From Thermoplasmata archaeon (lineage in GTDB: Archaea > Thermoplasmatota > Thermoplasmata > Lutacidiplasmatales > UBA184): a stretch of 64,000 nucleotides of DNA. A program made the position numbers and the translations under genes. Under the pieces are notes generated by a model that saw nothing but the letters and a program-made list of their open reading frames with translations, made no database searches and was not told the DNA's origin. Position 1 is the first letter of the stretch. Each line of letters opens with the position of its first letter. This document shows, in pieces, positions 3,496 through 57,213 of the stretch. The DNA is taken from contig JAKIVU010000002.1 of the NCBI GenBank assembly GCA_022750375.1, positions 38,946-102,945 of the forward strand. The letters run 5' to 3'.

Positions 3496-4248
3496 ATGCC
3501 GCCGCCAGACACCGAGCCACATTTTCTCGAGCCGTTGCTCGGGGTCGTGTTCGACCTCGATGGCACCCTGGTCCTCTCCCACCACGACTTCGGCCGGATG
3601 CGCGCCGAGGTGATCCGTATCGCGGAGCAGCACGGGGTCGTCCCCGGGCATCTCTCGGTCCGGGACCCGATCCACCGGATCGTCGAGACCGCCCGTGAGG
3701 AGCTCGCGAATTCGGGGGCGCCGGAGGGGAACCTCTTCCGGTTCGAAGCGGAGTACCCGAAGCGGATCGACGCGATCGAGGCCGAGGCGCTGCCGCGCAC
3801 GGTCGTACGCCCCGGCGCCGAGTCGCTCTTGCGGGCCCTCAGCGAGCGCGGCTTTCGCCTCGGGGTGCTCACCCGCAGTTCAGAGTACTTCGCCCGGAAC
3901 GCGCTCGCCCGTACGGGTCTCGGCCCGTTCTTCCCGTACCTGCGCAGCCGCAGCGCTCCCGGGCCCCAGAAGCCGTCGCCCGAAGCGCTCCAGCTCCTCC
4001 TCCGGGAGATGGAGATCCCCGAAGACCGAGCCCTGTTCGTGGGCGATCACTTGGTCGATGCCGAATGCGCGACGCGGGCTCGGGTGCGGTTCTACGGGAT
4101 CCTGCCCGACCCGTCGGACCAGAGCCCGGAACCGATGACCGAGGACCGGTTCTTGGCCGGCGGAGCGGCCGCCGTCGCGAAGGATCTGACGGAACTGGCG
4201 CGCCACCTCGACGTCGCGGGTCCGATGCGGCCCACGCCCGCCGGCTGA
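3496..4248 (+). CDS. HAD-superfamily hydrolase (phosphatase-like)
   Basis: Motif I VVFDLDGTLV, motif II LTRS region, motif IV FVGDHLVDAEC. Size of 250 aa is typical. Confidence 0.8.
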   Translation: MPPPDTEPHFLEPLLGVVFDLDGTLVLSHHDFGRMRAEVIRIAEQHGVVPGHLSVRDPIHRIVETAREELANSGAPEGNLFRFEAEYPKRIDAIEAEALPRTVVRPGAESLLRALSERGFRLGVLTRSSEYFARNALARTGLGPFFPYLRSRSAPGPQKPSPEALQLLLREMEIPEDRALFVGDHLVDAECATRARVRFYGILPDPSDQSPEPMTEDRFLAGGAAAVAKDLTELARHLDVAGPMRPTPAG

Positions 4249-4254
4249 TCCCGC

Positions 4255-5298
4255 TCAGAGGTATTCGCCGTACGCGTGGATCACCGCGCGTTCGGCGGTC
4301 GCCCACGCCTCGGGGATCTGGTTCCAGCCGTTCCGCTGGTCGCCCACGCAGTAGAGGCCGGGGATCGGGGCTCCGGTCGCCTCGGTGAGCACCCGGCAAT
4401 CTTCGTCCGTCATCACGTATCCGTCGGCGTCGAACTTTGCGCCGAGCGATCGCGGGAACTCGTGGTGCATGTCGTACCATCCGAGCGCGCTGAAGCCCCG
4501 GTCGTAGCTCCGGTGGCTCCCGTCGGCAAACTTCACGCCGAACCGTTTTTCCCGGATCTCGTCGAACCCGACCACCTCGAGGTCGGTGTGCTGTATCCCC
4601 TTCTCTGCGAGGGTCGCCGCGAGCGGGGCGCGCTCGACCTCGGGGACGCCGTCGAGCAGGGGCTGGCCCAGGGTGAGGAGTTCGACCGACGTCGGCCGGA
4701 AGTGCAGGAGGTCGAGCGCGGTCCGTGCAGCGAACGCATCGTCGCCGAGGACCGCGACCGACCTTCTCGTGAGCTCGTGGCCGTCGCACAGGATGCAGAA
4801 ATCGACGAGCGCCTGGTTCGCCCATGGGAAGATCGGGTCGATCTCTCCGCCCACCGAGGGGATCCGGTCGACGACGCCCTGCGCGAGGACGAGGGCCCGT
4901 CCGCGGACCACGTGGGTCTGCTTCAGCCATTCGAACGTGACGGTATACTCCCGTTCGACTCGCGCCACCGCCACGGCGCGTGCGGGGGTGAAGTAGCCCA
5001 CCGTCTCCGCCTTCCGCACCGCGGCGACCTGTTCGTCGAGAAGCTTGTGGCCGGAGATCCCGCCGGGGAATCCGGGGATGTTGTCCATTCTGGGCGAGTA
5101 GTACGAACGGGAGTACTTCGGTCCGCGGTCCACGATCGCCGCCGAGTGGCCGAGGAGCGACGCCTTAAGGCCCGCCTGGAGCCCCGCGTGTCCCCCCCCG
5201 ATCACGAGGAAGTCGTACGACTCCTGCACGCGAGGAAGGCCCGGCACAGCGTGGACCACCCGCCGCGGGAATTTCAGGCCTCCTTCTTCCGCGCGCAT
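4255..5298 (-). CDS. FAD-dependent pyridine nucleotide-disulfide oxidoreductase (thioredoxin-reductase-like)
   Basis: N-terminal Rossmann motif YDFLVIGGGHAGLQAG. C-terminal GLYCVGDQRNG flavin motif. The central second dinucleotide motif looks degenerate (VAVLGDDAFAA). Confidence 0.75.
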   Translation of the reverse strand: MRAEEGGLKFPRRVVHAVPGLPRVQESYDFLVIGGGHAGLQAGLKASLLGHSAAIVDRGPKYSRSYYSPRMDNIPGFPGGISGHKLLDEQVAAVRKAETVGYFTPARAVAVARVEREYTVTFEWLKQTHVVRGRALVLAQGVVDRIPSVGGEIDPIFPWANQALVDFCILCDGHELTRRSVAVLGDDAFAARTALDLLHFRPTSVELLTLGQPLLDGVPEVERAPLAATLAEKGIQHTDLEVVGFDEIREKRFGVKFADGSHRSYDRGFSALGWYDMHHEFPRSLGAKFDADGYVMTDEDCRVLTEATGAPIPGLYCVGDQRNGWNQIPEAWATAERAVIHAYGEYL

Positions 5299-5393
5299 CG
5301 CGCGGACCCCGGAAATCCGTCGCGCGGACGCTCCGGTGACGGCAAAACTTAAGCCCGAACCTCCTCCTCCTTCGCTTCGGGTTCCTGACGGCT

Positions 5394-6536
5394 GTGCCGG
5401 CCCGCGCCGCGAAGAGCGCGCTGGGGGGGACTCTATTTCTCGAGGACGGGACTCGCTTCGACGGAGAAGGGCTCGGAGCGACCGCTCGCCGCGTCGGCGA
5501 GGTCGTGTTCACGACCGGAATGGTCGGATATCCGGAGTCCCTCACGGACCCATCGTTCCGCGGGCAGATCCTGACGTTCACGTACCCGTTGATCGGGAAC
5601 TACGGCGTTCCCTCGAACGACCTCGACGCGGACGGGCTGCCCCGACTCGAAAGCGGGGAGGTTCAGCCGCGCGGGGTCGTGGTTCGCGGGACGACCGCAC
5701 CGAACCATTGGCAGAGCGAGCGTACGCTGGACGACTGGCTCCGGGCCGAGCGGGTCCCCGGGGTCCGGGGCGTCGATACCCGACGGCTCACCGAGCACCT
5801 GCGGTCGAAGGGAGTCGTTCGGGGCGTCGTCGACGTAGGCCCGCTGGACGACCGACCGTCCGACGAGGAGCTCGCGAAGTCGATCCGCGCCGCCCCGCAG
5901 TACGGGGAGGAGAACTTCATGGCCGAGGTTGCCCCCGCCCGGCCGACACTGATCGTACGCCGAGGAGGGCCCGTGGTCGCAGCGCTCGACTGCGGTATTA
6001 AGGCGAGCATCGTGCGTGCGCTCCTCGACCGGGGCGTCTCGGTCCTCCGACTACCGTACGACCATGAAGTGCCGGCGAAATGGGAGGGTCGCCGCGTCGC
6101 GGGTCTTCTCATCGGGAACGGACCCGGGGACCCGTCGGAGCTCGGCCCGACGATCGAGGAGCTCGCCCGGCCGTCGACCCGCGCCTTTCCGACGCTCGGG
6201 ATCTGTCTCGGACAGCAGCTGATCGCGCTCGCGCGCGGCGCGACCACGTTCAAGCTCAAGTACGGTCATCGGGGCCAGAACAAGACGATCTACTTCTCCG
6301 ACGGACGGGCGCTCATCGTCAGCGAGAACCACGGTTACGCGGTCGACCCCGCCTCGCTCGCCGACACGGGGCTCGACGTCTGGGCCACGAATCCCGACGA
6401 CGGGACCCTCGAAGGATTGCGCGACAGCGGTGGACGGGTCCTGGCGCTGCAGGGCCACCCGGAAGGCCACCCGGGACCGCAGGAGGCCGGGTTCGTCTTC
6501 GACCGGTTCGTCCAGAAGGTGAAGCGTCGCGCATGA
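5394..6536 (+). CDS. carA: Carbamoyl-phosphate synthase small (glutaminase) subunit
   Basis: LFLEDGTRFDGEG, GMVGYPESLTDPSFRGQILTFTYPLIGNYG, catalytic GICLGQQL and GHRGQN motifs. The stop overlaps the carB ATG (ATGA). Confidence 0.95.
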   Translation: MPARAAKSALGGTLFLEDGTRFDGEGLGATARRVGEVVFTTGMVGYPESLTDPSFRGQILTFTYPLIGNYGVPSNDLDADGLPRLESGEVQPRGVVVRGTTAPNHWQSERTLDDWLRAERVPGVRGVDTRRLTEHLRSKGVVRGVVDVGPLDDRPSDEELAKSIRAAPQYGEENFMAEVAPARPTLIVRRGGPVVAALDCGIKASIVRALLDRGVSVLRLPYDHEVPAKWEGRRVAGLLIGNGPGDPSELGPTIEELARPSTRAFPTLGICLGQQLIALARGATTFKLKYGHRGQNKTIYFSDGRALIVSENHGYAVDPASLADTGLDVWATNPDDGTLEGLRDSGGRVLALQGHPEGHPGPQEAGFVFDRFVQKVKRRA

Positions 6537-22845: not shown

Positions 22846-23556
22846 GTGAGTTTTCGAAATCGCCTCGTTGCGGAGAGATTTCTCGCACTGCGCGTGCCGT
22901 GGCCGGATTGGATTTTCGTCCCCGTCCTTATTCTCTGGGTCGTCGTCAACTTCGGATTCTATCCAGCCTATCCGTCATTCATCCTCGCAGTCGGGACGTT
23001 CCGGGCGCACTCGAATGTCATCTTCCCCATCACGTGGGGTTGTGCTCTCCTATTGTTCGCGTACGGGCTTTGGCTGTTTCATCGTCGCTACGCCCTTGAT
23101 CTCGTCCGCACCGTCGTCTACGCGATAGCTCTCTCCTTCGCGGCCACGTCGCTCTTTGAGATCCTCTACCAGAACGTCGGGATCGGAGCCGGCGTGGGCA
23201 ACCAGTCGCTGGAGGGCCAGGCAATCAACCTGAGTGCCTTGCTCCTGGCGCTCTCGAGTCTTCGATTCTGGCGACTCAGCCGGCCGTTCCTGATGTCGGC
23301 CGTCCTGTTCCTCGGCGGATGGCTACTATGGCTCGCCGCAGGGTATCCGCAGATCTACAACCCCTCCGCAGGCCTCGCCTCCGAGGGCTATGCATTCAAC
23401 TCGGTCCTCAAGGTCGGGGCGTTCGTCGTCGTCGCTCTGCTGGTCAGCTTTGCGCTCCCGTGGATAGAGGAACGACCCCCTGCCGAGGGCAAAGGCCCAA
23501 TATCCGAGGAAACACCCGTGGCCGCTTCTACCGCGGAGTCAGCGACCAGGCCGTAG
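22846..23556 (+). CDS. Integral membrane protein, function unknown
   Basis: About six hydrophobic spans, for example WIFVPVLILWVVVNFGFY, WGCALLLFAYGLWLF, VVYAIALSFAATSLFEIL, VLFLGGWLLWLAAG, VGAFVVVALLVSFAL. GC is visibly lower than in neighbouring genes. The 3' end overlaps the convergent mpg end by 18 nt. Confidence 0.65.
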   Translation: MSFRNRLVAERFLALRVPWPDWIFVPVLILWVVVNFGFYPAYPSFILAVGTFRAHSNVIFPITWGCALLLFAYGLWLFHRRYALDLVRTVVYAIALSFAATSLFEILYQNVGIGAGVGNQSLEGQAINLSALLLALSSLRFWRLSRPFLMSAVLFLGGWLLWLAAGYPQIYNPSAGLASEGYAFNSVLKVGAFVVVALLVSFALPWIEERPPAEGKGPISEETPVAASTAESATRP

Positions 23557-24141
23557 TGCCGGTCGGGGCCGAGAGACCGCGGCGTCGCCGTCGATCCAAA
23601 AGCGGAGCGGCCGCTCGGTGGCGCGACTGATCCCTACGCGCGCCCCCACGCCGATCCGTCGCGGTCGCACCCGGCGAGCGAACACGGCGACCCGGCTCCC
23701 GACGGTGACGTCCACGCCGTCGTCTTCGATCCTGACCCCCAACGCGCGACAGAGCCGACCCGGCCCGGTCGCCGTCTCGTCGCCGGCCGCCAACAGGGCG
23801 CCGGCCCGGAGGAGCACCGCTTCCCCGCGCCGGGTGACAAGGTTCGCGCACACGACCTGGTGGATCCGATAGACGTAGAGACTGCCGGGGGGGCCGAACA
23901 TCGACCGGTTGCGTCGGGTCGGTCCTCGAAACGCGTGACTTGCCTCGTCGCCGCGGAGGTACGCCTCCGTTTCGACGAGGCGTACTTCCCGGGTGAGGCC
24001 GTGCGCGGTGACTCGAAGACGCGCTCCGAGCAGTTCCCGCGCGACCCCGACAGTGGGGCGGTCGAAGAACGCCCGCCCGAGGCGGCGTTCCTCGGCCGGG
24101 TCAGAGGAGCTTGCCGCGGTCCGCGAGCGGATGCCCGTCAA
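23539..24141 (-). CDS. mpg: DNA-3-methyladenine (methylpurine) glycosylase, Mpg/AAG family
   Basis: FFDRPTVGVARELLGARL, LVETEAYLG-like (VETEAYLRGDEASHAF), RNRSMFGPPGSLYVYRIH, GPGRLCRALGV. The listed start is a TTG that overlaps the upstream gene by 41 nt, so the start is uncertain. Confidence 0.85.
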   Translation of the reverse strand: MTGIRSRTAASSSDPAEERRLGRAFFDRPTVGVARELLGARLRVTAHGLTREVRLVETEAYLRGDEASHAFRGPTRRNRSMFGPPGSLYVYRIHQVVCANLVTRRGEAVLLRAGALLAAGDETATGPGRLCRALGVRIEDDGVDVTVGSRVAVFARRVRPRRIGVGARVGISRATERPLRFWIDGDAAVSRPRPALRPGR

Positions 24142-25233: not shown

Positions 25234-26562
25234 TTATAGGGCGGTGGCGCCCGACCGAACACTCGCGACGATCGTCGGCGCGGCGGTCGGGTCGGCTGCG
25301 AGCGCCCGCGCCACCGCGACGATCAGGTGGCCGGCGTCGTCGTACGGCGGAGAGAAGCCGAACGGACCGAGGTGTCGGGGAAAGTCGGCCCACCCACCCC
25401 TCCCGGAAGCCGCGTTTCGGACGACCGTCCGGATCCGCCGCCCTCGCGAGAAGTCGGCGATGTCTCGGCGGAGTCCCGGCGCGGCGCCCGCGGCGCGCGC
25501 GACGTCGAGCCACGCTCGGAGCTTTTCCGGTCGGTGGCGGCGCCGTCGCGCTCCGTATCCGAAGACGCCGTTGAAGTACAGGAACGGTCCGCCATGCTCC
25601 ATCGCTTCGAGGAGCGTCCGGCTTCCGGTGACGATCCGGAGCTCCGCGCGGGCGAACCGACGCCGCCACGCTCGCGGCGACAGCGGGCCGACCGCTACGA
25701 TGACCCGGTCGGAGGGGAACGTCGTGGCCCATTCCCGACCCGTGCGTACGTAGAGCCGCACGCGAGGTCTCGCCTCGGAGAGCCCGGCGACCACGCCCGG
25801 CGCGATCGCCTCGGCACTCGGCGGGCTCGCATACCAGACCCACTCCCTCGCGGTCTTCGCCGCGCGGCGCGCGTCCGAGCGCCGGTATCGGGGCCAGAGG
25901 GGCCCGGTCTGGACCGCGGCGGGATACTCTCGTGCGAACTGTCGGTCGGCCCGGAACGTGGCGAACAGGTGGAGCACGTTCGCCCGGTCGAACGCTCGAT
26001 GCGTCCGGAACGCCGTTCGGAACTGATCCACCTCTCCGGCACGTTGGGACCGGGCGAGACGGGCGGGCAGCGCGCGGCGGAGCACTCCCCCCTCGCGGAG
26101 ACGCTCCCGATTTTCTTCCGCGGAGGGAAGGGTTCGCGCGAACTCCTCGAGACTGACGTGCAACGTCGACGCGGGCCCGTACGCCTCCTCGACCGCCCGC
26201 GCCTCGAGTTCCCACGGGCCCCCCCGACCGAACGGTTCGGGTCGGCTCGGGGCGGCGCTGATCCCCCACGCCGGGGAGACCGTCAGTGCGGCCGGCGCGA
26301 GAGGAACGAGCCGATCCCGGCGCTCCACGGGCGGCCAATCCCACGGACCGTCCACTGAGCGCGGAAGCGCACGGCCGGGGAGGCGGAAGAGGAGCGGACG
26401 GAACCCGGCCCGCGCGAGTTCCCGGCCCGCGGCGAGGACCTCCTCGATGTCCCCGAGACCACCGCCCACGACGGCGGGAAAGAGATAGACGTCGACCCCG
26501 GGACGCCGGCGACCGGTCCTAGGCGACGGGTCGGTAGAGCGTCTGATCGGTGAGGGCTTCAT
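25234..26562 (-). CDS. Hypothetical protein with glycosyltransferase-B-like N-terminal signature
   Basis: Start at ATG 26562 (MKPSPIRR..VDVYLFPAVVGGGLGDIEEVLAAGRELARAGF), a strand, Gly-loop and helix as in GT-B enzymes. The C-terminal half has RIVTGSRTLLEAMEHGGPFLY. I recognise no specific family. It overlaps the upstream GNAT gene by 44 nt. Confidence 0.5.
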   Translation of the reverse strand: MKPSPIRRSTDPSPRTGRRRPGVDVYLFPAVVGGGLGDIEEVLAAGRELARAGFRPLLFRLPGRALPRSVDGPWDWPPVERRDRLVPLAPAALTVSPAWGISAAPSRPEPFGRGGPWELEARAVEEAYGPASTLHVSLEEFARTLPSAEENRERLREGGVLRRALPARLARSQRAGEVDQFRTAFRTHRAFDRANVLHLFATFRADRQFAREYPAAVQTGPLWPRYRRSDARRAAKTAREWVWYASPPSAEAIAPGVVAGLSEARPRVRLYVRTGREWATTFPSDRVIVAVGPLSPRAWRRRFARAELRIVTGSRTLLEAMEHGGPFLYFNGVFGYGARRRRHRPEKLRAWLDVARAAGAAPGLRRDIADFSRGRRIRTVVRNAASGRGGWADFPRHLGPFGFSPPYDDAGHLIVAVARALAADPTAAPTIVASVRSGATAL

Positions 26563-27451
26563 GGAATCCTCCTTCCAAGAGGGCCGCGCGGCCGCGCACG
26601 TTCGAGGCCGGTAGTCGCGTCGCGATCCGGGGAGCTCCCTGCGCGACGCACCAGTCGATCGCCGTGCGAACCAGCGCGATGGCTTCGGGGGCCGAGACTC
26701 CTTCCCCGATGATCGGGCTGGAGACGTGACCGGAGTTCGACGCGCGCGTGGCCGTGGCCGAGAGGTGCCCCTCCGGTCCCTGGCCGTGGTCGACGACCCA
26801 GGCGGCCGACGCGCTCTCGAGCACGCGGTCCACGAAGCTCGAGCCCCGCAGCGCACCTTCCGCGACCGGGAGCACTTCCAGCACTTCGGGGGGAGTGGAC
26901 CGGCGCGCCACTTCGACCAGAGGGCGCGCATCGCGGGGACGGAACGGACGGATCGCGGTCGACGGGCCACCGGTGAGGGGCGCATTCGCGTCCCGGACGA
27001 ACAGCGCCCCTTCGCGGAGCGGGCGGTATCCGATCCGCTCGTAGAGGGTCCGCGCCGCAGCGTTCTGGCTGAGCACGTCCAGGACGATGTACCGCCGTCC
27101 GGTGGCTTGCGTGACGGCCCGCGCCCGTTCGAGCAGCGCCTGGGCGAGACCCCGCCGTCGATAGGCGGGGTCGACGACCACGGTGCTGACGTACCCGGAC
27201 CGCTCCGGGAACGACAGCAGCGTCGTCGCGACGACCTTACCGTCTTCCTCGACCACGAAGAACCGGTAGATCGGCCGGCCGAAGAGACGCAGGAGCCGGA
27301 TCACGAACTGGGTGTCCCAGCGGAACAACCTCCGTACGACCTTCGCGAACCCCTCCGGGTTCGTGCCGATCAGCGCCTCTTCCTCGGGGAATCCGATCTT
27401 CAGCAGTTCGAAGACCCGGGTCGCGTCCGTCTTCTTCAGTTCTCGGATCAT
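26519..27451 (-). CDS. GNAT-family N-acetyltransferase (N-terminal GNAT domain plus a second GNAT-like half)
   Basis: Acetyl-CoA motif A YVSTVVVDPAYRRRGLAQALLERA and TLYERIGYRP. The ATG overlaps the HEAT gene stop (ATGA). Confidence 0.8.
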   Translation of the reverse strand: MIRELKKTDATRVFELLKIGFPEEEALIGTNPEGFAKVVRRLFRWDTQFVIRLLRLFGRPIYRFFVVEEDGKVVATTLLSFPERSGYVSTVVVDPAYRRRGLAQALLERARAVTQATGRRYIVLDVLSQNAAARTLYERIGYRPLREGALFVRDANAPLTGGPSTAIRPFRPRDARPLVEVARRSTPPEVLEVLPVAEGALRGSSFVDRVLESASAAWVVDHGQGPEGHLSATATRASNSGHVSSPIIGEGVSAPEAIALVRTAIDWCVAQGAPRIATRLPASNVRGRAALLEGGFHEALTDQTLYRPVA

Positions 27452-28941
27452 CCGCTCTCCTCGTCGTCCGCGGAGGCGGGGATCGCGGTCTCGAACAGCA
27501 TGCGAAGGGTCGGCGGCGTGACGTCCCCGCCGACCTCGGGGAGGGGAAGACGCGCGAGCCGGTCGAGTTCCTCCTCCGAGAGCCGCTCGCGGACGTCAAG
27601 GAGCGCCCGATGCACGAACGGGTCGGACGTGCCGTGGGAGAGACGGCCGAGCGCTTGCACGGCCGCGTCGAACAGCCGGCTCTCCGCGTCGGACCGCACG
27701 TTCCCGGCGGGGTCCGGGTCCTCGAGGACGAGTTCGTCCGGGTCGCCCGGCCGGACCCCGTAGAGCAGTCGGACGAGCTCTTCCCGGGCGCCGTCGTCCG
27801 CGAGCCGCCCGAGGGTCCAGATCGCGGCGAGCTTCACCTCCGCGACCGGGTCGGTGAGCTCCTCGCGGATCCGCGGCGCCGCTTCGGTGAGACCGAGACG
27901 GCCGATGGCGTAGGTGGCGCCCCGGCGCGGCCACGGGTGGACGTCGTGCAGAAGTTCGAGGAGGACCGGCAGTTCGTCCGCTCCCCCGGCGGCCCCGAGC
28001 GCGATCGCCGCGGCGCCTCGCACGGCCCACGACGGGTCCCGGGCGTGCGTCAGCGCGGCGGCGCGGGCCTCGGGCACGCCGAGGTCGCCGAGGGCGTGGA
28101 GCGCACAGACGCGCACCCAGTGGGCCGGATGGTCGCTCGCGGCGAGGAGCGCTGGCACCGCCTCGACCGAGCCGATCCGTCCGAGCGCCACGAGGATCGC
28201 GGGCTTCTCCCAGGTCTCGGGGGTCGCCAGTCGTTCGAGCAGGAGCGGCACGCTCCCCCGGTCGCGGTGGCGGCCGAGCACGACAGCCGCGGCGACGCGC
28301 ACGCGACGAGACGGGTCCGCGAGGAACGGCCGAACGGTCGGGATGACGGAGGCGTCCGTCCGGCGGCCGAGCCCGAGGACCGCCTCGCGACGGACCCGGT
28401 CGTTCGGGTCGGCGAGGAGCGGAGCGAGGGCGTCGGCGGCCGCATCCGTGCCGATCGCGCCGAGCGCGGAAGCGACGACCTGACGGACCTCGGGGGACGG
28501 GTCCGTCGCGTGTACGGCGAGCACGGGGATCGACCGCGGGTCGGCGAGAGCGCGAAGCGCCCCGGCGACGCGAGCGCGCACGATCGCGTCGGGGTCCTCG
28601 AACGCCGCCTCGAGCGGTTCGCGGCTCTCGGCCCGACCGATCGCGCCCAGCGCCTCGGCGGCGCTCGCCCGCACTCCGATGTCCGGGTCGGTCAGCGCCG
28701 CGGCCAGCGTGCTGCGGCCCCTCGGGTCCTTCAGGATGCCGAGCGCGACCGCCGCCGTCTGGCGGAGCCCCGGCGACGGGTCACTCAAGGCGAGGAGCAG
28801 CGGCGTGAGGTCCTCGAGACGTCCCTCCGCGATGCTCCTTCGGATCTTCGCCGCCTGGCGCGACGGGGTTTCCGGGGGGCGACGTGGGGCTCGTCGGGGC
28901 GTGGTGCGCGGTCGGGTCGTTCGCCGCGATCGGGGAGCCAC
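27448..28941 (-). CDS. HEAT (PBS-lyase-type) repeat protein with basic N-terminal tail
   Basis: At least ten repeats of the form D(P/A)xxxVRxxAAxALGxxG. Examples: LTDPDIGVRASAAEALGAIG, FEDPDAIVRARVAGALRAL, ATDPSPEVRQVVASALGAIG, LADPNDRVRREAVLGLG. The N-terminal 45 aa are Arg/Pro/Thr-rich. GTG start uncertain. Confidence 0.8.
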   Translation of the reverse strand: MAPRSRRTTRPRTTPRRAPRRPPETPSRQAAKIRRSIAEGRLEDLTPLLLALSDPSPGLRQTAAVALGILKDPRGRSTLAAALTDPDIGVRASAAEALGAIGRAESREPLEAAFEDPDAIVRARVAGALRALADPRSIPVLAVHATDPSPEVRQVVASALGAIGTDAAADALAPLLADPNDRVRREAVLGLGRRTDASVIPTVRPFLADPSRRVRVAAAVVLGRHRDRGSVPLLLERLATPETWEKPAILVALGRIGSVEAVPALLAASDHPAHWVRVCALHALGDLGVPEARAAALTHARDPSWAVRGAAAIALGAAGGADELPVLLELLHDVHPWPRRGATYAIGRLGLTEAAPRIREELTDPVAEVKLAAIWTLGRLADDGAREELVRLLYGVRPGDPDELVLEDPDPAGNVRSDAESRLFDAAVQALGRLSHGTSDPFVHRALLDVRERLSEEELDRLARLPLPEVGGDVTPPTLRMLFETAIPASADDEESG

Positions 28942-28963: not shown

Positions 28964-31300
28964 CTAAAACGTCCCCCCGGTTCCGTCGGGGTCCGCGAAG
29001 GCGGCCTGGGCGACCCCTTCGGGGGACCGGTACGGCTCCCGCTCCGGTGACGGGGCGACCCCCCACCGCTCGAGCAGGGTCGCGCGGTCGACTCCGAGCG
29101 GAGCGAGCAGCGTCTCCGCCGCGCGGGCCAGCAGGTCGAGGTACGCCCCGGCGTCGTACGGCTCGTCGCCCTGCAGCAGCTCGGCCGCCCGCACGCGGTG
29201 CCGGAACGAGCGGCTCCGTCGGTCGAGCACGACGTACCGGACGAGCTCGCCCGCCTCCCGGTGGACCCCGGCGCCCGCGAGCTGGCGGAGGGCAGCGACC
29301 GAGTCGGTGAACGTCACGAACGCCTCCGGCGCCTGCCCGATCCGGTGCGAGATGAGCAGCTCGTCCGCAGGCCACGACCCCGCCGCGAGCCGCTCGGCGA
29401 ACAGGTCGGCCCGGGCGAGGGCGCGCGGCAGGAGCGCACGGACCCCCTCCGCGTCGCGCGCCGAGCGGAACAAGGAGAGGACCTCCCCCTCGAACCGGCG
29501 CACGAGTACCGTGGTATCGTGCCGCCGCGCCCCGATCCCGCGGAGCTTGAACTCCCCGTGCTCGTAGAGCCCGTAGTACCGGTTCGGGACGCCGAGGCCG
29601 TGCGTCGTCGCGGGGAGGAACAGGATCCACCGGTAGCGCCCCTCGTAGCTGAGTGGCAGGTCGAACCGTGCGCTCATCGCGCGCGCGAACGCCTCCGGGT
29701 CCGGGGGCCGGTCCGGGTCGATCGGCCGCACCCAGAGCGAGTCGACGATCCCGTGGACCACGCGGTAGCCGGCGTCTTCCGCGGTCGGCACGAGGTCGGC
29801 GAGGAGCCGGCGCGCGTAGGCGTTGATCGCCTCGTGGCACTCGATCCGGCCGAACCGGGCGTTCCGGTATCCCTGATAGCCGAATGCCGTGACGAGGATC
29901 CATTTCAGCATCTTGACCCGACGTTTCAACCGCACCACCTCGTCGGGCGGGGTCCCGGGCCGTTTCATCGCCGCCTTGTACGCCATCCGGCGGGCGAGGA
30001 GGGGGGCGAGCGTACGGGGGATCAGCCCCACCCGGCGCGTGCACGACCGGTAGCCGAGCCCCGGCGCCCGGATCGGGCTCGCGGGGCAGCAGCGGCACTC
30101 GAGCGTCTCGGCCGAGAGGTTGTTCCGCACCATGATCGACGGGTAGAGGCTCGCGAAATCGAACTCGTCGATCCGGTCGTGGACGCCGACCGGGGGGAGG
30201 AAGATCACCCCACCCCGGTCCGCGGCGACCAGGTGGTCGCCGCGTCGGAACATCTCGGGGCGGTTCTTCTTCCACGGCACGTGCGCGCCGAGCGCGAGCG
30301 CGTGGGCCATCTCCATCGCGGTGAAGCAGGTCCCGGGCGATTGGCGGACGACGGTCGAGAGCGAGAGCCGGGAGAGCCGGGCGGCGTCGACGAGCCCGGC
30401 GATATCGGCGTCGTCGAAGAGGAACGAGTTCTCCCGGTCGATATGGAAACGACCGGGGACCGGGTACGACGCGGCGCGGTGGTGGACCACGCCGTACGAC
30501 TCGAACGACCGCGCCCGGCGGGACGGGCGGAACGGCGCCCGCTCGCGACCGAGCTCAAAGACGTCGGGGCCGAGGCCGCACGCGGCGGCCCGCCGGTAGA
30601 GCCACGGGAGGTCGAACGCATCGCCGCCCTGGGTCAGGAGCACGTCGGGGTCGCTCCGCGCGAGCTCGTCCACGAGCGCGCGCAGGAGCTCCTCCTCGGA
30701 ACCTTCGAGCGTCACGTCGCCGAGCCGGACCGACCCGATGTGTCCGTCGGGCGGCGGGATGCGTCCCCGACGCTCGCCCGCGATGTGGACCTCGAGCCGG
30801 GCGACGCGGAGCGGCGGGGTGACGTAGTCGATCGTCTCCGCCGGCTCGGTCGCCGTGAGGGCGGCGCCGTGCCCCATCACCGGAGCGAACGGGTAGAGCG
30901 CGTGGCCGAGGTGGTAGAGCTGGGGAGGGACGAGGTCGACGTCGTAGAGCCGGTACCGTTCGAACCCTCCGAGCGCGTCGACCGACCGGGCGAGCGCGCG
31001 ACGGCGCGGGTTCCGTTCGGGGGTCACCGCGAGGACCGTGCGAGGTCGCCGGTCGTAGAGCGACGGCGCGAGCACCCGACGCTCCACGACCGCGACCGCG
31101 GGGTCGCCCTCGAGCCGTCGCGCGAGGTCGACGAGGTCGTCCCGGGGCCCTTCGACCAGGAACGGCGGACGGAACTCGACCGCGGTCCGGCGCACCCGAC
31201 CCGACGACCGCTCCTTCCGCCAGAGGACGACCGAGCGACCGTCGTCGCTGTCGGTGATATCGAGCAGCCAGCCGTCCGCGGTCGGGGCCGGCCCGTCCAC
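28964..31300 (-). CDS. polB: Family-B DNA polymerase with degenerate Exo I, motif B and motif C (PolB2-like)
   Basis: PolB landmarks: GWLLDITD..FRPPFLVEG (N-terminus), GGDAFDLPWLY (Exo II-like), DEFDFASLYPSIMVRNNLS (motif A). Deviations: VARLEVHIA where FDIET is expected, KWILVTAFGYQGY where KxxxNSxYG is expected, and VVHGIVDSLWV where YGDTDS is expected. The GTG start lies 2 nt after the upstream stop. Confidence 0.85.
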   Translation of the reverse strand: MDGPAPTADGWLLDITDSDDGRSVVLWRKERSSGRVRRTAVEFRPPFLVEGPRDDLVDLARRLEGDPAVAVVERRVLAPSLYDRRPRTVLAVTPERNPRRRALARSVDALGGFERYRLYDVDLVPPQLYHLGHALYPFAPVMGHGAALTATEPAETIDYVTPPLRVARLEVHIAGERRGRIPPPDGHIGSVRLGDVTLEGSEEELLRALVDELARSDPDVLLTQGGDAFDLPWLYRRAAACGLGPDVFELGRERAPFRPSRRARSFESYGVVHHRAASYPVPGRFHIDRENSFLFDDADIAGLVDAARLSRLSLSTVVRQSPGTCFTAMEMAHALALGAHVPWKKNRPEMFRRGDHLVAADRGGVIFLPPVGVHDRIDEFDFASLYPSIMVRNNLSAETLECRCCPASPIRAPGLGYRSCTRRVGLIPRTLAPLLARRMAYKAAMKRPGTPPDEVVRLKRRVKMLKWILVTAFGYQGYRNARFGRIECHEAINAYARRLLADLVPTAEDAGYRVVHGIVDSLWVRPIDPDRPPDPEAFARAMSARFDLPLSYEGRYRWILFLPATTHGLGVPNRYYGLYEHGEFKLRGIGARRHDTTVLVRRFEGEVLSLFRSARDAEGVRALLPRALARADLFAERLAAGSWPADELLISHRIGQAPEAFVTFTDSVAALRQLAGAGVHREAGELVRYVVLDRRSRSFRHRVRAAELLQGDEPYDAGAYLDLLARAAETLLAPLGVDRATLLERWGVAPSPEREPYRSPEGVAQAAFADPDGTGGTF

Positions 31301-31302
31301 GG

Positions 31303-31557
31303 TCAGCGCGCGACCGGTCGGCCCGCGGGTTCGGCGGGCAGCCGTCGAGCGAGGTCGAGGAGGACGGAGAGGAGGATCGACTCGAGGAGGTCCGGGCTCC
31401 CGACGTACGTCGCCTGGGCGGCGTACCGACGGGCCCCGGTCCGGAGCGTCTCGAACGCGGCGCGTTCCTCGGGGGTCGTGAGGAGCCGCGCGAACTCGTC
31501 CCAGCGTTTCATCCGTTCCTCGAGTGCCTGGCGGTACGTCGGAGCGGTGCGCCCCAT
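31303..31557 (-). CDS. Small helical protein (84 aa; alternative 69-aa form from ATG 31512)
   Basis: MGRTAPTYRQALEERMKRWDEFARLLTTPEERAAFETLRTGARRYAAQATYVGSPDLLESILLSVLLDLARRL.. ATG 31512 forms an ATGA overlap with the upstream stop. ATG 31557 gives a 49-nt overlap. No family recognised. Confidence 0.45.
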   Translation of the reverse strand: MGRTAPTYRQALEERMKRWDEFARLLTTPEERAAFETLRTGARRYAAQATYVGSPDLLESILLSVLLDLARRLPAEPAGRPVAR

Positions 31558-32387
31558 GCGATCACCTCCTCGGCGGAACCGCCGCCGAACTCCTCCATCC
31601 CCCGCTGCCCTCCGGCGCGGGGGACGATGGCGAGCCGGGCGTCGTCGCGGAGGGCGCGCAGGCGGAGTGTGCCGGGTCCCCGGACGAACGTGACGAGGTC
31701 GCACCAGCGGGGTCCCTCGTCGACGAGGCCGGGGAACCGGTCGAGGCCCCCGGGGTTGAGGGTGAGGAGGAGGGGCGCGCGCACATCGTCCGCGAGCGTT
31801 CGCAGCGCCCGTGCGACGTGCCGCAGGAGCGCGGCGCGTTCGTCGTCCGGGATCTCGTCGGCCGCGAACAGCGCCGGAAGGTCGTGCGCGACGAGGAGCG
31901 TGGGCGGATGCCGTCGTGCCTCGGCAGCCCAGCCGTCGACCAGGGCAACCATCTGGTACGCGGTGAACGCCCGGGCGAGCCGGATCCTTCGCAACGTCTC
32001 GGTCGCGTCGACCCCGAGCGAACGGCCGAGCTCTCCGATCCGATACGGGTGGAACCGGTTCCCTCCCTCGAGGAGCGAGATCCGGCCGCGCGCGAGTGCG
32101 TTCCCGGCGTAGAGCAGCTCGAGCATCGGTTCGACGGCGACCCCGGGACCGGTCCAGAGCGTCACCTCGCCCGGAGCGAACCGGCGGGCGAGCCACGGGA
32201 AGAGCGCCGGCTCGGGCGGGAGGAGGGGGCCGGCGCGCGATCGACGGGAGTGCGGCGCGAGGTGGATCCGGGCGATGCCCGCGCTCGGTGCCGGTGGGGC
32301 GGTCGACGGGGCGTCGAACGGGAACGGGTCGAACGGTTCTACCTCGTCCGGTGCGAGGGCGGGCTCGAGGTCGAACGCATCCGTCAT
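31509..32387 (-). CDS. RecA/RadA/KaiC-fold protein lacking the Walker A Lys/Thr (predicted inactive ATPase)
   Basis: GEVTLWTGPGVAVEPMLELL occupies the P-loop position with no GK[ST]. It is followed by ISLLEGGNRFHPYRIGEL, RIRLARAFTAYQMVALV and PTLLVAHDLPALF (Walker B-like hhhhD). The N-terminal ~70 aa are Pro/Asp/Phe-rich (EPFDPFPFDAP). Confidence 0.6.
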   Translation of the reverse strand: MTDAFDLEPALAPDEVEPFDPFPFDAPSTAPPAPSAGIARIHLAPHSRRSRAGPLLPPEPALFPWLARRFAPGEVTLWTGPGVAVEPMLELLYAGNALARGRISLLEGGNRFHPYRIGELGRSLGVDATETLRRIRLARAFTAYQMVALVDGWAAEARRHPPTLLVAHDLPALFAADEIPDDERAALLRHVARALRTLADDVRAPLLLTLNPGGLDRFPGLVDEGPRWCDLVTFVRGPGTLRLRALRDDARLAIVPRAGGQRGMEEFGGGSAEEVIAWGAPLRRTARHSRNG

Positions 32388-32493
32388 CAGTCGATACCGG
32401 CCCTGTTGAGGGGACGGACCGCTCTAAAGCGGCCGCTCGGGGGGCGTTGAAACGGGTCCGGGAACGGGGCGTTCCCGGCGTCCCCCGCGCGGC

Positions 32494-33261
32494 CTACAGG
32501 TCGAGACGCGAACTCCCGGGGGGCGGAGGAAGGCCGAGCTGCTCGCTGAGCGAACGACCGTTCGTCGCGGCGTCCCCGCGGAAATGGTTGTTGAAGAACC
32601 CGTAGACGACGCGCGCGTTCTCGGCGAGGGTCTGGACCCGGGGGACCCACGCCGTGACCTCCTCGACCGAGTACGTGTAGTCGTACCACGTCGGGTTCCC
32701 GTGCCCGTGCCAGCGCACGTAGGCGAACGGCGCGGTGACGCGGAGGTCGACCGGAAGGTGGGGACCGTCGACGATCACGTAGGCGAGGCCGAACTCCTCG
32801 AGCAGCGCGTACGATTCGGGAACGAGCCACGACCGCTCGCGGAACTCGACGGCGACGGGGAGGTCGCGGGGCAGGGACGAGTAGAACGTGCGGACCGTCC
32901 CGGGGTCGAACGGGAGGGACGGCGGCAGCTGGAGGAGCGCCGCCGCGAACTTCCCGGCGTCCCGGATCGGTTTCATCACCGCAAGGAATCGCGCGAGCTC
33001 CTCGTCGGTCGCGACGAGCCTTAGGTCGTGCGTGATCGTCTGAGGGAACTTCGCGGCGAACCGAAATCCGGTGGGAGTCCTCCGCACCCACGACGCGGCG
33101 ACCGACGAGGGCGGGAGCCGGTAGAACGTGGAGTTGACCTCGACGATCGGGAACAGGCTCGCGTAGTACCGCAGCTTGTCCGACGCGCCGTGCGGAGGGT
33201 AGACCCGACCCACCCACTCGGGGTAGTCCCATCCGCTCGTCCCCAGCAGGATGTTCCCCAT
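32494..33261 (-). CDS. DUF72 (UPF0759) family protein
   Basis: Start at ATG 33261 (MGNILLGTSGWDYPEWVGRVYP..YYASLFPIVEVNSTFYRLP..FAAKFPQTITH..FNNHFRGDA). The upstream 168 codons of the listed ORF are artefact. Confidence 0.85.
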   Translation of the reverse strand: MGNILLGTSGWDYPEWVGRVYPPHGASDKLRYYASLFPIVEVNSTFYRLPPSSVAASWVRRTPTGFRFAAKFPQTITHDLRLVATDEELARFLAVMKPIRDAGKFAAALLQLPPSLPFDPGTVRTFYSSLPRDLPVAVEFRERSWLVPESYALLEEFGLAYVIVDGPHLPVDLRVTAPFAYVRWHGHGNPTWYDYTYSVEEVTAWVPRVQTLAENARVVYGFFNNHFRGDAATNGRSLSEQLGLPPPPGSSRLDL

Positions 33262-48084: not shown

Positions 48085-48356
48085 ACCCGCGTCACCGGCG
48101 GAAAAATCGAATGAGTTCTTCCGGAGGAACGGCTTGTGCGCTTCGAGCGACGCGTTCCGACGCCGTCGGAGCACGGCTCCGACCGAGTACACTTATACCA
48201 CCTCGCACTAAGCGCCAGCCGGAGGAACTCGACGGGTGTCCCGAGCGGCACCGGCTGCGTCCCATTCCACCGCCGGCCGGCGGGAAACGGCCCCACTTCG
48301 GGGGCGTTTCGCGAACTGGCCCGCAGTGGAATAGGCTCACCCGGTGATCTCGTCTC

Positions 48357-55566: not shown

Positions 55567-57213
55567 ATGCCCACGAACGCGGATGCCGCCGAACTGTTCC
55601 GGGGGATCGCGGATGTCTTGGACGTCCTCGGCGAACGATTCAAGCCGGAGGCGTATCGCCGGGCGGCGCGCTCCATCGAGAGCTTGACCGAGGGGCTCGC
55701 CGACGTCGCGGCCCGCGGCGACCTGCGCACGATCCCGGGGGTCGGCGACGCGATCGAGGAGAAGATCCGAGAGTACCTCGGCACCGGGCGCCTCGACTAC
55801 TACGACCGACTCCAGAAGGAGGTGCCTCCGGGAATCCTCACCCTCCTACGTATCCCCGGTCTCGGGCCGAAGACGGCCCGACGATTCTGGCTCGAGCTCG
55901 GGGTCGAAGGGCCCGCCGAGCTCGCCGACGCGATCCAACAGCATCGACTGGATGGGGTCAAGGGGTTCGGTCCCAAGAAGATCGAGCAGATCCGCGTCGC
56001 GCTCGCCGCCGCGGCAGGAGCCCCCGCCGCCGCCCGGCTCCCGATCGAGGTCGCGACCGCGATCGCGCAGCGCCTGGTCGCCGGCCTCCGCGCCGCCGGA
56101 GGTGTCGAACAGATCGAGCTCGCGGGGAGCTTCCGTCGCGGCCGGGAGACGGTCGGGGACCTCGACATCCTCGTGACGTCGGCCGACCCCGAGCGGATCT
56201 TCGACGCGTTCAGCCGCCTGCCCGATGTGGGCGAGGTGAAGCTCCGCGGCGGTACGAAGGAGACCGTCGTGCTCCGCGGTGGTCTCCAGGTCGACCTCCG
56301 CGTGGTCGAGCCGGCGGCGTTCGGCGCCGCGTGGCAATATTTCACCGGCTCGAAGGACCACAACGTGCGCCTCCGATCCCTCGCCCGCGACCGCGGATTG
56401 AAGATCAACGAGTACGGCGTCTTCCGCGGTGAGGAACGGGTCGGGGGTCGAACCGAACAGGAAGTGTACGGCACCCTCGACCTCGCCTGGATCCCTCCCG
56501 AGCTCCGGGAGGACCGGGGAGAGATCGACGCCGCCGCGAAGGGCCCACTCCCTCCGCTCGTCGAGCGGACGGACCTCGTGGGCGACCTCCATTTGCATTT
56601 GCCGCCGGGGGCCGGCGCACGAGACGTCGACCAGCTCGTCGCGACGGCGCGCGCACGAAAGCTCTCCTACCTCGGCCTCGTCGTGGCGCGTGTAGAACCC
56701 GACGCGAGCCGGTCGACGTTGTCGACGGCCGTGCTCGACCGACTCGACTCCGTGAAGTCGGCCGGCCTCACGATCGTTCGAGCGGTCGAGGCGGGAGCGG
56801 ACGGTATTCCCGCCGAATGGGCGAAGCTCCGGCACGACTACGTGATCGTACGACCCACGGCGGCACAGGCGGAGCCGCCAACCTCCGCCCGGACTCCGTT
56901 CGGGGCGGCGTTGGTCGCCCACGTCGGCGGCGAGGAGTCCGGCCGACGCTGGGTCGCCTGGGCACGGTCGCAAGGAGCGGCGGTCGAGGTTGGCCCCGGG
57001 CCCGACCGGCTCGACTCGACCGGCGCCCGCACCGCACGGGAGGCCCGGGTCCCGCTCGTGCTGCCGACCGGAGTCGACCGGCAGGAAGATGACCCGACGT
57101 GTCCCGTCGCCCTCGGATTCGCGCGTCGCGCCGGTGCCGGTCCGAGTGACGTGCGCAATACGGCGCCGGTCGCGGAAATTACGGCGGCTTGGTCGAAGAA
57201 GCGGCGGGCGTGA
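55567..57213 (+). CDS. polX: Family-X DNA polymerase with C-terminal PHP domain
   Basis: HhH motifs IPGVGDAIEEKI and IPGLGPKTARRF. Catalytic GSFRRGRETVGDLDILV plus VDLRVV. YFTGSKDHN. The PHP domain begins at GDLHLHLPP. Confidence 0.9.
   Translation: MPTNADAAELFRGIADVLDVLGERFKPEAYRRAARSIESLTEGLADVAARGDLRTIPGVGDAIEEKIREYLGTGRLDYYDRLQKEVPPGILTLLRIPGLGPKTARRFWLELGVEGPAELADAIQQHRLDGVKGFGPKKIEQIRVALAAAAGAPAAARLPIEVATAIAQRLVAGLRAAGGVEQIELAGSFRRGRETVGDLDILVTSADPERIFDAFSRLPDVGEVKLRGGTKETVVLRGGLQVDLRVVEPAAFGAAWQYFTGSKDHNVRLRSLARDRGLKINEYGVFRGEERVGGRTEQEVYGTLDLAWIPPELREDRGEIDAAAKGPLPPLVERTDLVGDLHLHLPPGAGARDVDQLVATARARKLSYLGLVVARVEPDASRSTLSTAVLDRLDSVKSAGLTIVRAVEAGADGIPAEWAKLRHDYVIVRPTAAQAEPPTSARTPFGAALVAHVGGEESGRRWVAWARSQGAAVEVGPGPDRLDSTGARTAREARVPLVLPTGVDRQEDDPTCPVALGFARRAGAGPSDVRNTAPVAEITAAWSKKRRA

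Follow-up and report, generated by a model that had tools for sequence, protein, structure and literature searches.

A probable iRadA-PPB2-PolB2 mutasome operon of an uncultured soil Thermoplasmata archaeon, with a promoter palindrome shared with ribonucleotide reductase

A conserved archaeal operon that encodes the family-B DNA polymerase PolB2, a small helical protein (arCOG07300) and an inactivated RadA was described by Makarova, Krupovic and Koonin in 2014, who proposed both the inactivation of PolB2 and a link with arORC2 (PMC4104785). [quoted passage not shown] It was also noted there that genes for DUF72, SRAP and Orc1/Cdc6 are enriched near polB2, with DUF72 having a TIM-barrel fold related to the UV (ultraviolet)-damage endonuclease (PMC11791011). 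The only experimentally studied case is the Dpo2 operon of Sulfolobus/Saccharolobus islandicus, which is composed of the same three protein families, and the Sulfolobus Dpo2, with the motif IID, is an active, damage-induced polymerase needed for targeted mutagenesis (PMC11791011). Here we analyse a 64-kb stretch of DNA with a G+C content of about 70% (the window) from a Thermoplasmata archaeon (GCA_022750375.1), on the minus strand of which three adjoining genes quite probably constitute a chromosomal 'PolB2 mutasome' operon, of the group 1a order iRadA-PPB2-PolB2, of an uncultured soil member of this class.

The locus is an operon that has already been catalogued. It appears as a row in supplementary file 1 of PMC11791011, under MCI4338934.1 / MCI4338936.1 / MCI4338935.1, GCA_022750375.1 and the name Thermoplasmata archaeon, where it is assigned to group '1a (iRadA-PPB2-PolB2)' with a DUF72 neighbour, the polymerase motif HGIVDSLWV / IVD at 516, and QRGMEEFG as the iRadA motif at 261, followed by 24 further residues. 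The PolB2 of the window is identical to the first 399 amino acids and to the 61-amino-acid stretch spanning motifs B and C that are printed for MCI4338934.1, with the motif positions also in agreement, and its placement in the PolB2 clade is by this identity, the assignment having been made by the clustering and tree of those authors (PMC11791011). The trio, the 'mutasome' reading and this very locus are all published. A preliminary description of the window, made from the letters alone, had arrived at a damage-tolerance, 'mutasome-like' module and had left it open whether the linkage had been reported; the literature reads the trio in the same way, and the linkage is indeed described (PMC4104785, PMC11791011). 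A close counterpart among the group 1a operons of Timinskas et al. is that of Thermoplasmata archaeon M9B2D (PNX53385-87), which has the same gene order, DUF72 upstream and the same HGIVDSLWV (IVD), and in which the PCNA-interacting peptide (PIP)-like motif of iRadA reads QSHLEAFG where that of the window reads QRGMEEFG. Group 1a operons sometimes have SRAP upstream, whereas the row of the window lineage is without it, and none was found among the larger ORFs of the window in a scan that was not exhaustive; the two operons do not differ substantially.

The layout of the three genes, co-directional on the minus strand with the polymerase starting immediately after the small gene, is as the preliminary description had given it and as the list of open reading frames (ORFs) has it. 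The iRadA gene (31509-32387; 292 amino acids, ATG start, published as MCI4338936.1) is identified by its ORF, the Pfam Rad51 model, AlphaFold and Foldseek. It is followed by the gene for PPB2 (31303-31557; 84 amino acids, three-helix, arCOG07300 / Pfam DUF8156, MCI4338935.1), which overlaps the iRadA 3' end by 49 nucleotides, and by that for PolB2, a Dpo2-type family-B DNA polymerase (28964-31300; 778 amino acids, MCI4338934.1), the GTG start of which lies 2 nucleotides past the TGA of the small ORF.

The same arrangement is widespread among relatives. With the polymerase as query, 51 genome loci were recovered, all the relatives being metagenome-assembled genomes (MAGs) named 'Thermoplasmata archaeon', mostly from soil, and conservation of the neighbourhood, which the preliminary description had set as a check, is found: the order iRadA-PPB2-PolB2 is present in about 49 of the 51 loci, including Sysuiplasmataceae-like genomes with a PolB2 of only 36% identity, the exceptions being one truncated locus and one with a lone PolB2. 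In most loci the upstream neighbour is DUF72, and in most close relatives PolB2 is followed by a HEAT-repeat gene and a GNAT gene; the whole block adjoins an A/V-type ATP synthase operon, a context that is conserved in all Thermoplasmata loci. It is noted that one locus with the same operon and a PolB2 that is 79% identical (L016, DAIDCO010000015.1) is titled 'bacterium isolate clean3188' and is probably a Thermoplasmata MAG under a wrong label; similarly, one PPB2 cluster (P0142) bears the name of an 'Acidimicrobiia bacterium'.

We consider now the polymerase. That it belongs to family B, as the preliminary description had concluded from its landmarks, is evident from the Pfam domains DNA_pol_B (8e-19) and DNA_pol_B_exo1 (4e-7), and both motif A DFASLYPS and the Exo II segment GGDAFD are found. 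Compared with the PolB structures of the PDB it gives 1e-35 as a single sequence and 1e-70 as a profile, the closest solved structures being the replicative Thermococcales PolB enzymes. On the basis of this closeness it could be proposed that the gene is a misidentified replicative PolB3 or PolB1, or else a polymerase carried by a casposon, a pPolB element or some other mobile element. By contrast, the best NCBIfam models are NF004418 and NF004416, which are labelled only 'type B DNA-directed DNA polymerase', a description that does not name PolB2, while the models 'DNA-directed DNA polymerase I' and 'DNA polymerase II' score far lower, all scores being below the cut-offs and those of the latter two models far below. 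Moreover, the DxE of the exonuclease is lost, the operon has the conserved chromosomal context beside the A/V-type ATP synthase operon, no Cas1 or integrase is present among the annotated neighbours (terminal repeats were not searched for), and the published tree puts the sequence in PolB2 (PMC11791011). A replicative or mobile-element polymerase is effectively refuted by these points and we give it hardly any probability.

The motifs of PolB2 were placed by alignment to the Thermococcales PolB structures, and the conservation of its residues was read from an alignment of 11 homologues with 36-86% identity. Motif A (DFASLYPS, 30137-30160, minus strand) keeps its Asp, D381, which is invariant. 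Motif B (KWILVTAFGY, 29876-29905, minus strand) differs from KiLaNSlYGY in that Asn is replaced by Val and Tyr by Phe, with the Lys kept, and motif C (HGIVDS, 29738-29755, minus strand) differs from YSDTDG in that the first Asp is replaced by Ile, with the second, D520, invariant. These deviations, including the loss of the first Asp of motif C, had been placed by hand in the preliminary description, and the alignment to the Thermococcales sequences agrees with them. Over the whole alignment, D381 of motif A, K466 to G474 of motif B, H516-G-I-V-D520-S of motif C and also D288 are invariant. The aspartates D381 and D520 are those that we take, by the textbook assignment, to be the two catalytic metal ligands. 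Since both of these presumed metal-binding aspartates are invariant, PolB2 is probably active, like the Sulfolobus Dpo2.

The exonuclease domain presents a different picture. Exo I is without DxE, as had been claimed before, and this is true in both of its plausible placements, PPLRVARLEVHIA and ATEPAETIDY; HMMER pairs DIET with PAET, whereas the classical landmark 'PPLRV..' favours LEVHIA. The candidate acidic positions of Exo I vary across the homologues, the Asp of Exo II is not conserved across them either, and in Exo III the acidic position stays Asp or Glu but the Tyr is replaced by Phe. With no DxE, no conservation of the acids of Exo I and Exo II, and the Tyr-to-Phe change of Exo III, the proofreading is therefore judged to be lost. 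The earlier term 'degenerate' is overstated for the enzyme, D381 and D520 being invariant; as read from the alignment, PolB2 is better called specialised than degenerate, with its presumed metal aspartates under strict selection.

This bears directly on the original idea of Makarova et al. in 2014, which, applied here, would have PolB2 as a dead polymerase and the complex as a scaffold or regulator of replication or of origin usage. That idea would be in line with the loss of the first Asp of motif C, with the replacement of the Asn and Tyr of motif B and with the dead exonuclease, and it was published together with the proposed inactivation and arORC2 link (PMC4104785). If the active site had decayed, however, it would not be expected that D381, D520 and K466 are invariant across the homologues, and the I-x-D change is also that of the Sulfolobus Dpo2, a translesion polymerase that is active. 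In addition, no Orc1/Cdc6 neighbour was found among the larger ORFs of the window in a scan that was not exhaustive. We thus regard the dead scaffold as improbable. The likeness to S. islandicus Dpo2 extends beyond motif C, where IID stands in S. islandicus and IVD in the window with the first Asp changed to Ile in both: the dead exonuclease, the MGRT arm of PPB2 and the D(K/R) loop of PolB2 are also shared. The gene order, by contrast, is PPB2-PolB2-iRadA (group 3a) in S. islandicus and iRadA-PPB2-PolB2 in the window.

Two further features of PolB2 concern its partners. The loop RFHIDR (30434-30451, minus strand) contains the PolB2-specific D(K/R) motif (D288-R289, with D288 invariant), which contacts the N-terminal arm of PPB2 in the published models (PMC11791011). 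Just before the invariant HID288R loop there is a candidate for the Rad51-oligomerisation-like motif, of the form (F/M)-R-(P/G)-(S/A) at residues 257-260 and reading F257-R-P-S in the window, which was picked out by sequence only.

The 292-amino-acid partner has the RecA/RadA fold that had been attributed to it in the preliminary description. The Pfam Rad51 match of the single sequence is weak (E = 1.8e-5), while a profile of 14 iRadA sequences gives E = 1.5e-15 against the RadA structures of the PDB, with the alignment starting only from residue 101. The AlphaFold model, with a mean pLDDT (predicted local distance difference test) of 80 and above 90 in the core, has the fold of a RadA ATPase core, and its best Foldseek matches are the ATPase cores of RadA, Rad51 and DMC1 at about E = 1e-12. 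Residues 1-37, the N-terminus that had been called disordered, have pLDDT below 50 and are variable among the homologues, and no helical (helix-hairpin-helix, HhH) domain is present ahead of the core. As the Walker A region could not be aligned to RadA by HMMER against the PDB, either with the single sequence or with the profile, the AlphaFold model was used for it: between strand 74-79 and helix 82-98 the loop has only about 2 residues. The segment at the P-loop position, GPGVAVEP (residues 80-87; 32127-32150, minus strand), has no GK[ST] and is variable in the homologues, so that the earlier observation that it contains no Lys or Thr is borne out by both the homologue alignment and the model. 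The Walker B-like LLVAHD does lie on the Walker B strand, as was claimed, but its acidic residue is out of register, HMMER pairing the His and not the Asp with the Walker B Asp of RadA, and it is unconserved, the equivalent position being D, E, G or S across the homologues. Judged by these sequences and the model, iRadA is a catalytically inactive RadA/Rad51 homologue in which the ATPase site is lost.

It could be argued from the RadA fold that iRadA is instead a RadA paralogue in the manner of a mediator of the RadB/aRadC type, and that the operon serves recombination or fork restart, with PolB2 used for the extension of D-loops rather than for lesion bypass; the Rad51-oligomerisation-like interface in the published models would suit this as well (PMC11791011). 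Yet iRadA is without an ATPase site and without the N-terminal HhH domain, PolB2 was modelled to bind iRadA and not an active RadA (PMC11791011), and the Sulfolobus genetics indicates targeted mutagenesis. A recombination role is, in our estimation, about as improbable as the dead scaffold. Towards its C-terminus iRadA carries, at residues 261-268 (31584-31607, minus strand), the PIP-like motif QRGMEEFG, listed at 261 in the published table, the pattern of which, Q-x-x-[LMI]-x-x-F, is kept in every related locus, even in relatives with about 25% identity.

The third member, PPB2, is the best conserved of the trio, with 70-100% identity in nearly all closer loci and 67% in two (L034 and L041), as against 53-86% for iRadA in the closer loci. 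Its start is placed at ATG 31557 because of the conserved MGRT N-terminus and because of the Shine-Dalgarno sequence 3 nucleotides upstream. The N-terminus reads MGRTAPTYR, the pattern (M/V/L)GRT(A/V)PT(Y/F)R being found in all related loci, whether the start is ATG, GTG or TTG, with G2, R3 and T4 invariant and R9 conserved in at least 90%. The Shine-Dalgarno sequence, GGAGGTGAT, is perfect and lies within the iRadA coding sequence (AGGAGGTGAT, 31561-31570, minus strand). The preliminary description had given the coordinates of the small ORF correctly but had highlighted the internal ATG 31512, which forms an ATGA with the upstream stop; with the Shine-Dalgarno sequence and the conserved N-terminus both at 31557, ATG 31512 is rejected as the PPB2 start and the ATGA is taken to be incidental.

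The last 49 nucleotides of iRadA (31509-31557, minus strand) also encode the MGRT arm of PPB2 in another frame, and this overlap is retained in nearly all close relatives. The tail of iRadA beyond the PIP-like motif is therefore constrained by the N-terminus of PPB2, and the 24 residues of the tail in the window are there because the iRadA 3' end overlaps the PPB2 start. In L048-L052, which are distant relatives, there is no overlap or one of only a few nucleotides, and iRadA stops a few residues past the motif. Some loci have joined or extended frames: in L039 (4862-5956) the frames of iRadA and PPB2 form a single ORF of 364 amino acids, and in L027, L034, L041 and L047 (about 5711-6073) the PPB2 frame continues over about 120 amino acids, beyond the PolB2 start. 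Such frames could be either fusions of the type reported in PMC11791011 or assembly frameshifts.

That PPB2 is a small helical protein, as had been supposed, is in agreement with the AlphaFold model, which has helices at 8-25, 29-52 and 57-72. The searches of the 84-amino-acid protein with Pfam and NCBIfam gave no match; the Pfam copy appears to be without PF26485, and hence this is not evidence against membership. All of the 120 PPB2 homologues listed, which are up to 98% identical, have a precomputed match to PF26485 (DUF8156).

Based on these features and on the published models, the complex may work as follows, where in our own analysis the fold of iRadA and the secondary structure of PPB2 were checked on models and PolB2 was checked by sequence features. 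PolB2 would be the catalytic subunit, which, having no proofreading, would extend primer termini that are mismatched or opposed to a lesion. A Rad51-oligomerisation-like beta-alpha motif, for which F257-R-P-S is a candidate, would serve it to hold one iRadA. A trimer of PPB2 would then dock, with one N-terminal MGRT arm (R3, R9) entering the cleft between PolB2 and iRadA beside the DNA, and the complex would be tethered to PCNA by the C-terminal PIP-like QRGMEEFG of iRadA. PPB2 would be made from its own strong Shine-Dalgarno sequence inside the iRadA gene, and such independent initiation fits the higher stoichiometry of PPB2 (3:1:1). The invariant catalytic residues of PolB2, the lost ATPase of iRadA and the conserved chromosomal synteny are the reasons for which the alternative explanations are disfavoured relative to the mutasome.

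The proposed complex is comparable with several described translesion systems. In the Pol V mutasome of E. coli (UmuD'2C-RecA-ATP), a translesion polymerase is likewise combined with one protomer of the RecA family through an oligomerisation-like motif, a small oligomeric subunit puts its N-terminal arm near the active site, and the sliding clamp is used. By contrast, its polymerase is of the Y family, its RecA is an active recombinase and UmuD' is unrelated to PPB2, so that Pol V is an analogue and not a homologue. In the ImuA-ImuB-DnaE2 cassettes, which are tied to damage-induced mutagenesis, the gene of a specialised mutagenic polymerase likewise has that of an inactive RecA-like protein next to it. 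The comparison with these cassettes, which had been made at the outset, is sound as an analogy but not as homology: no homologue of ImuB or DnaE2 is involved, the Y-family-like ImuB and the C-family DnaE2 standing in contrast to the sole, family-B polymerase of the window operon, and iRadA is in the RadA/Rad51 branch, which makes the resemblance functional only. The eukaryotic Pol zeta (Rev3-Rev7x2-Pol31-Pol32) is likewise a multisubunit family-B translesion 'extender' with an inactive exonuclease, though its accessory subunits are unrelated.

Several observations weigh against the mutasome reading, as discussed below. The motif B of PolB2 is without the Asn and Tyr of KxxxNSxYG, by which the binding of deoxynucleoside triphosphates could suffer. 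The PIP-like motif of iRadA is weak: it has a non-canonical FG for FF, 24 residues separate it from the C-terminus, and beside QRGMEEFG the published table has -2.1, which we take to be a motif score. The model of the PPB2 monomer is of moderate confidence, with a pLDDT of 73, and has no fold match in the PDB, although a PPB2 would be expected to form a homotrimer and to resemble the sigma-factor N-terminal domain in its fold. In L038, where PolB2 (3876-6221) is 63% identical and is preceded by an ORF of 1193 amino acids resembling a surface protein, neither iRadA nor PPB2 is found in the 3.8 kb upstream of it or in the 6 kb downstream. Finally, the activity of PolB2, the complex, the PCNA binding and the damage induction in Thermoplasmata are extrapolated from Sulfolobales and from the AlphaFold models of others.

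The 106-nucleotide spacer upstream of iRadA holds two elements that may govern the transcription of the operon. The first is a TATA-like box, GCTTTAGAG (32422-32430, minus strand), 35-43 nucleotides upstream of the iRadA ATG, which reads GCTT(T/A)AGA in most related loci and is the probable operon promoter. The second, a candidate operator, is a palindrome, GGAACGCCCCGTTCCCGGACCCGTTTC (GRAAC-N15-17-GTTYC; 32449-32475, minus strand), which ends about 18 nucleotides upstream of the TATA-like box. Comparison was made over two sets of related loci, L001-L054 for PolB2 and L055-L134 for ribonucleotide reductase (RNR). Of 52 related upstream regions, 43 have the pattern GRAAC-N15-17-GTTYC at the position of the operon promoter, also when the rest of the spacer has diverged, and the pattern has 5 matches elsewhere in the sequence of the PolB2 loci. 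In the window itself there is only one further site, 48284-48310, where 0.77 would be expected by chance for 64 kb; it lies 118 nucleotides upstream of a class II RNR gene and about 19 nucleotides upstream of an AT-rich box, and of 75 related metagenome loci, 68 keep the palindrome at the class II RNR promoter. In the fetched sequence, about 1.05 Mb in all, the palindrome is almost limited to the promoters of the PolB2 operon and of RNR.

Its presence at both promoters suggests a shared regulon. The inner positions of the palindrome are only weakly self-complementary and no Rfam family is matched in the window or in the RNR leader, and for these two reasons an operator, to which a dimeric regulator would bind, is considered more likely than a hairpin. 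Transcription of the mutasome operon probably starts from GCTTTAGAG, and the palindrome suggests control by a regulator and induction by DNA damage or replication stress. In Sulfolobales the regulation is different: the induction requires Orc1-2, which binds an ANTTTC element at the damage-response promoters (PMC6061795), whereas the conserved element here is palindromic. The GTTTC half-site does resemble ANTTTC, but it is too short for the resemblance to carry much weight. It is also noted that a promoter element common with RNR would suit a general replication-stress response, which is a point in favour of a recombination or fork-restart role. In literature searches on the palindrome and on an archaeal regulon of RNR or of DNA damage, we found no description of the element. 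It is a tentative proposal, for which we would claim somewhat less than even chances, that the palindrome marks a regulon not described before, by which soil Thermoplasmata would respond to DNA damage or replication stress under a dimeric regulator.

The neighbouring genes are as follows. Directly upstream of iRadA, beyond the 106-nucleotide spacer, lies the DUF72 gene (32494-33261, minus strand; 255 amino acids), identified by Pfam (E = 5e-64) and by synteny. Downstream, the gene for a HEAT-repeat protein (27448-28941, minus strand; 497 amino acids) starts 22 nucleotides past the PolB2 stop, and that for a GNAT acetyltransferase (26519-27451, minus strand; 310 amino acids) overlaps the end of the HEAT gene by 4 nucleotides; both may be on the same transcript as PolB2. 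Acetyltransf_1 is tallied, without discussion, among the polB2 neighbours in Table S1 of the published survey (PMC11791011). Two other DNA-repair-type genes are present in the window: a methylpurine-DNA glycosylase (23539-24141, minus strand; Pfam Pur_DNA_glyco, E = 5e-45), about 5 kb downstream of PolB2 on the same strand, and a family-X DNA polymerase (55567-57213, plus strand) with Pol beta thumb, palm and HHH domains. No palindrome is present upstream of either.

The value of the present analysis is mainly confirmatory, in that a real functional module is recognisable from the raw sequence. Within a clade of soil Thermoplasmata that is abundant and uncultured, the module is strongly conserved and almost universal. 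The palindrome shared by the two promoters is the sole forward-looking lead, and it could open up the regulation of the DNA-damage response outside Sulfolobales.

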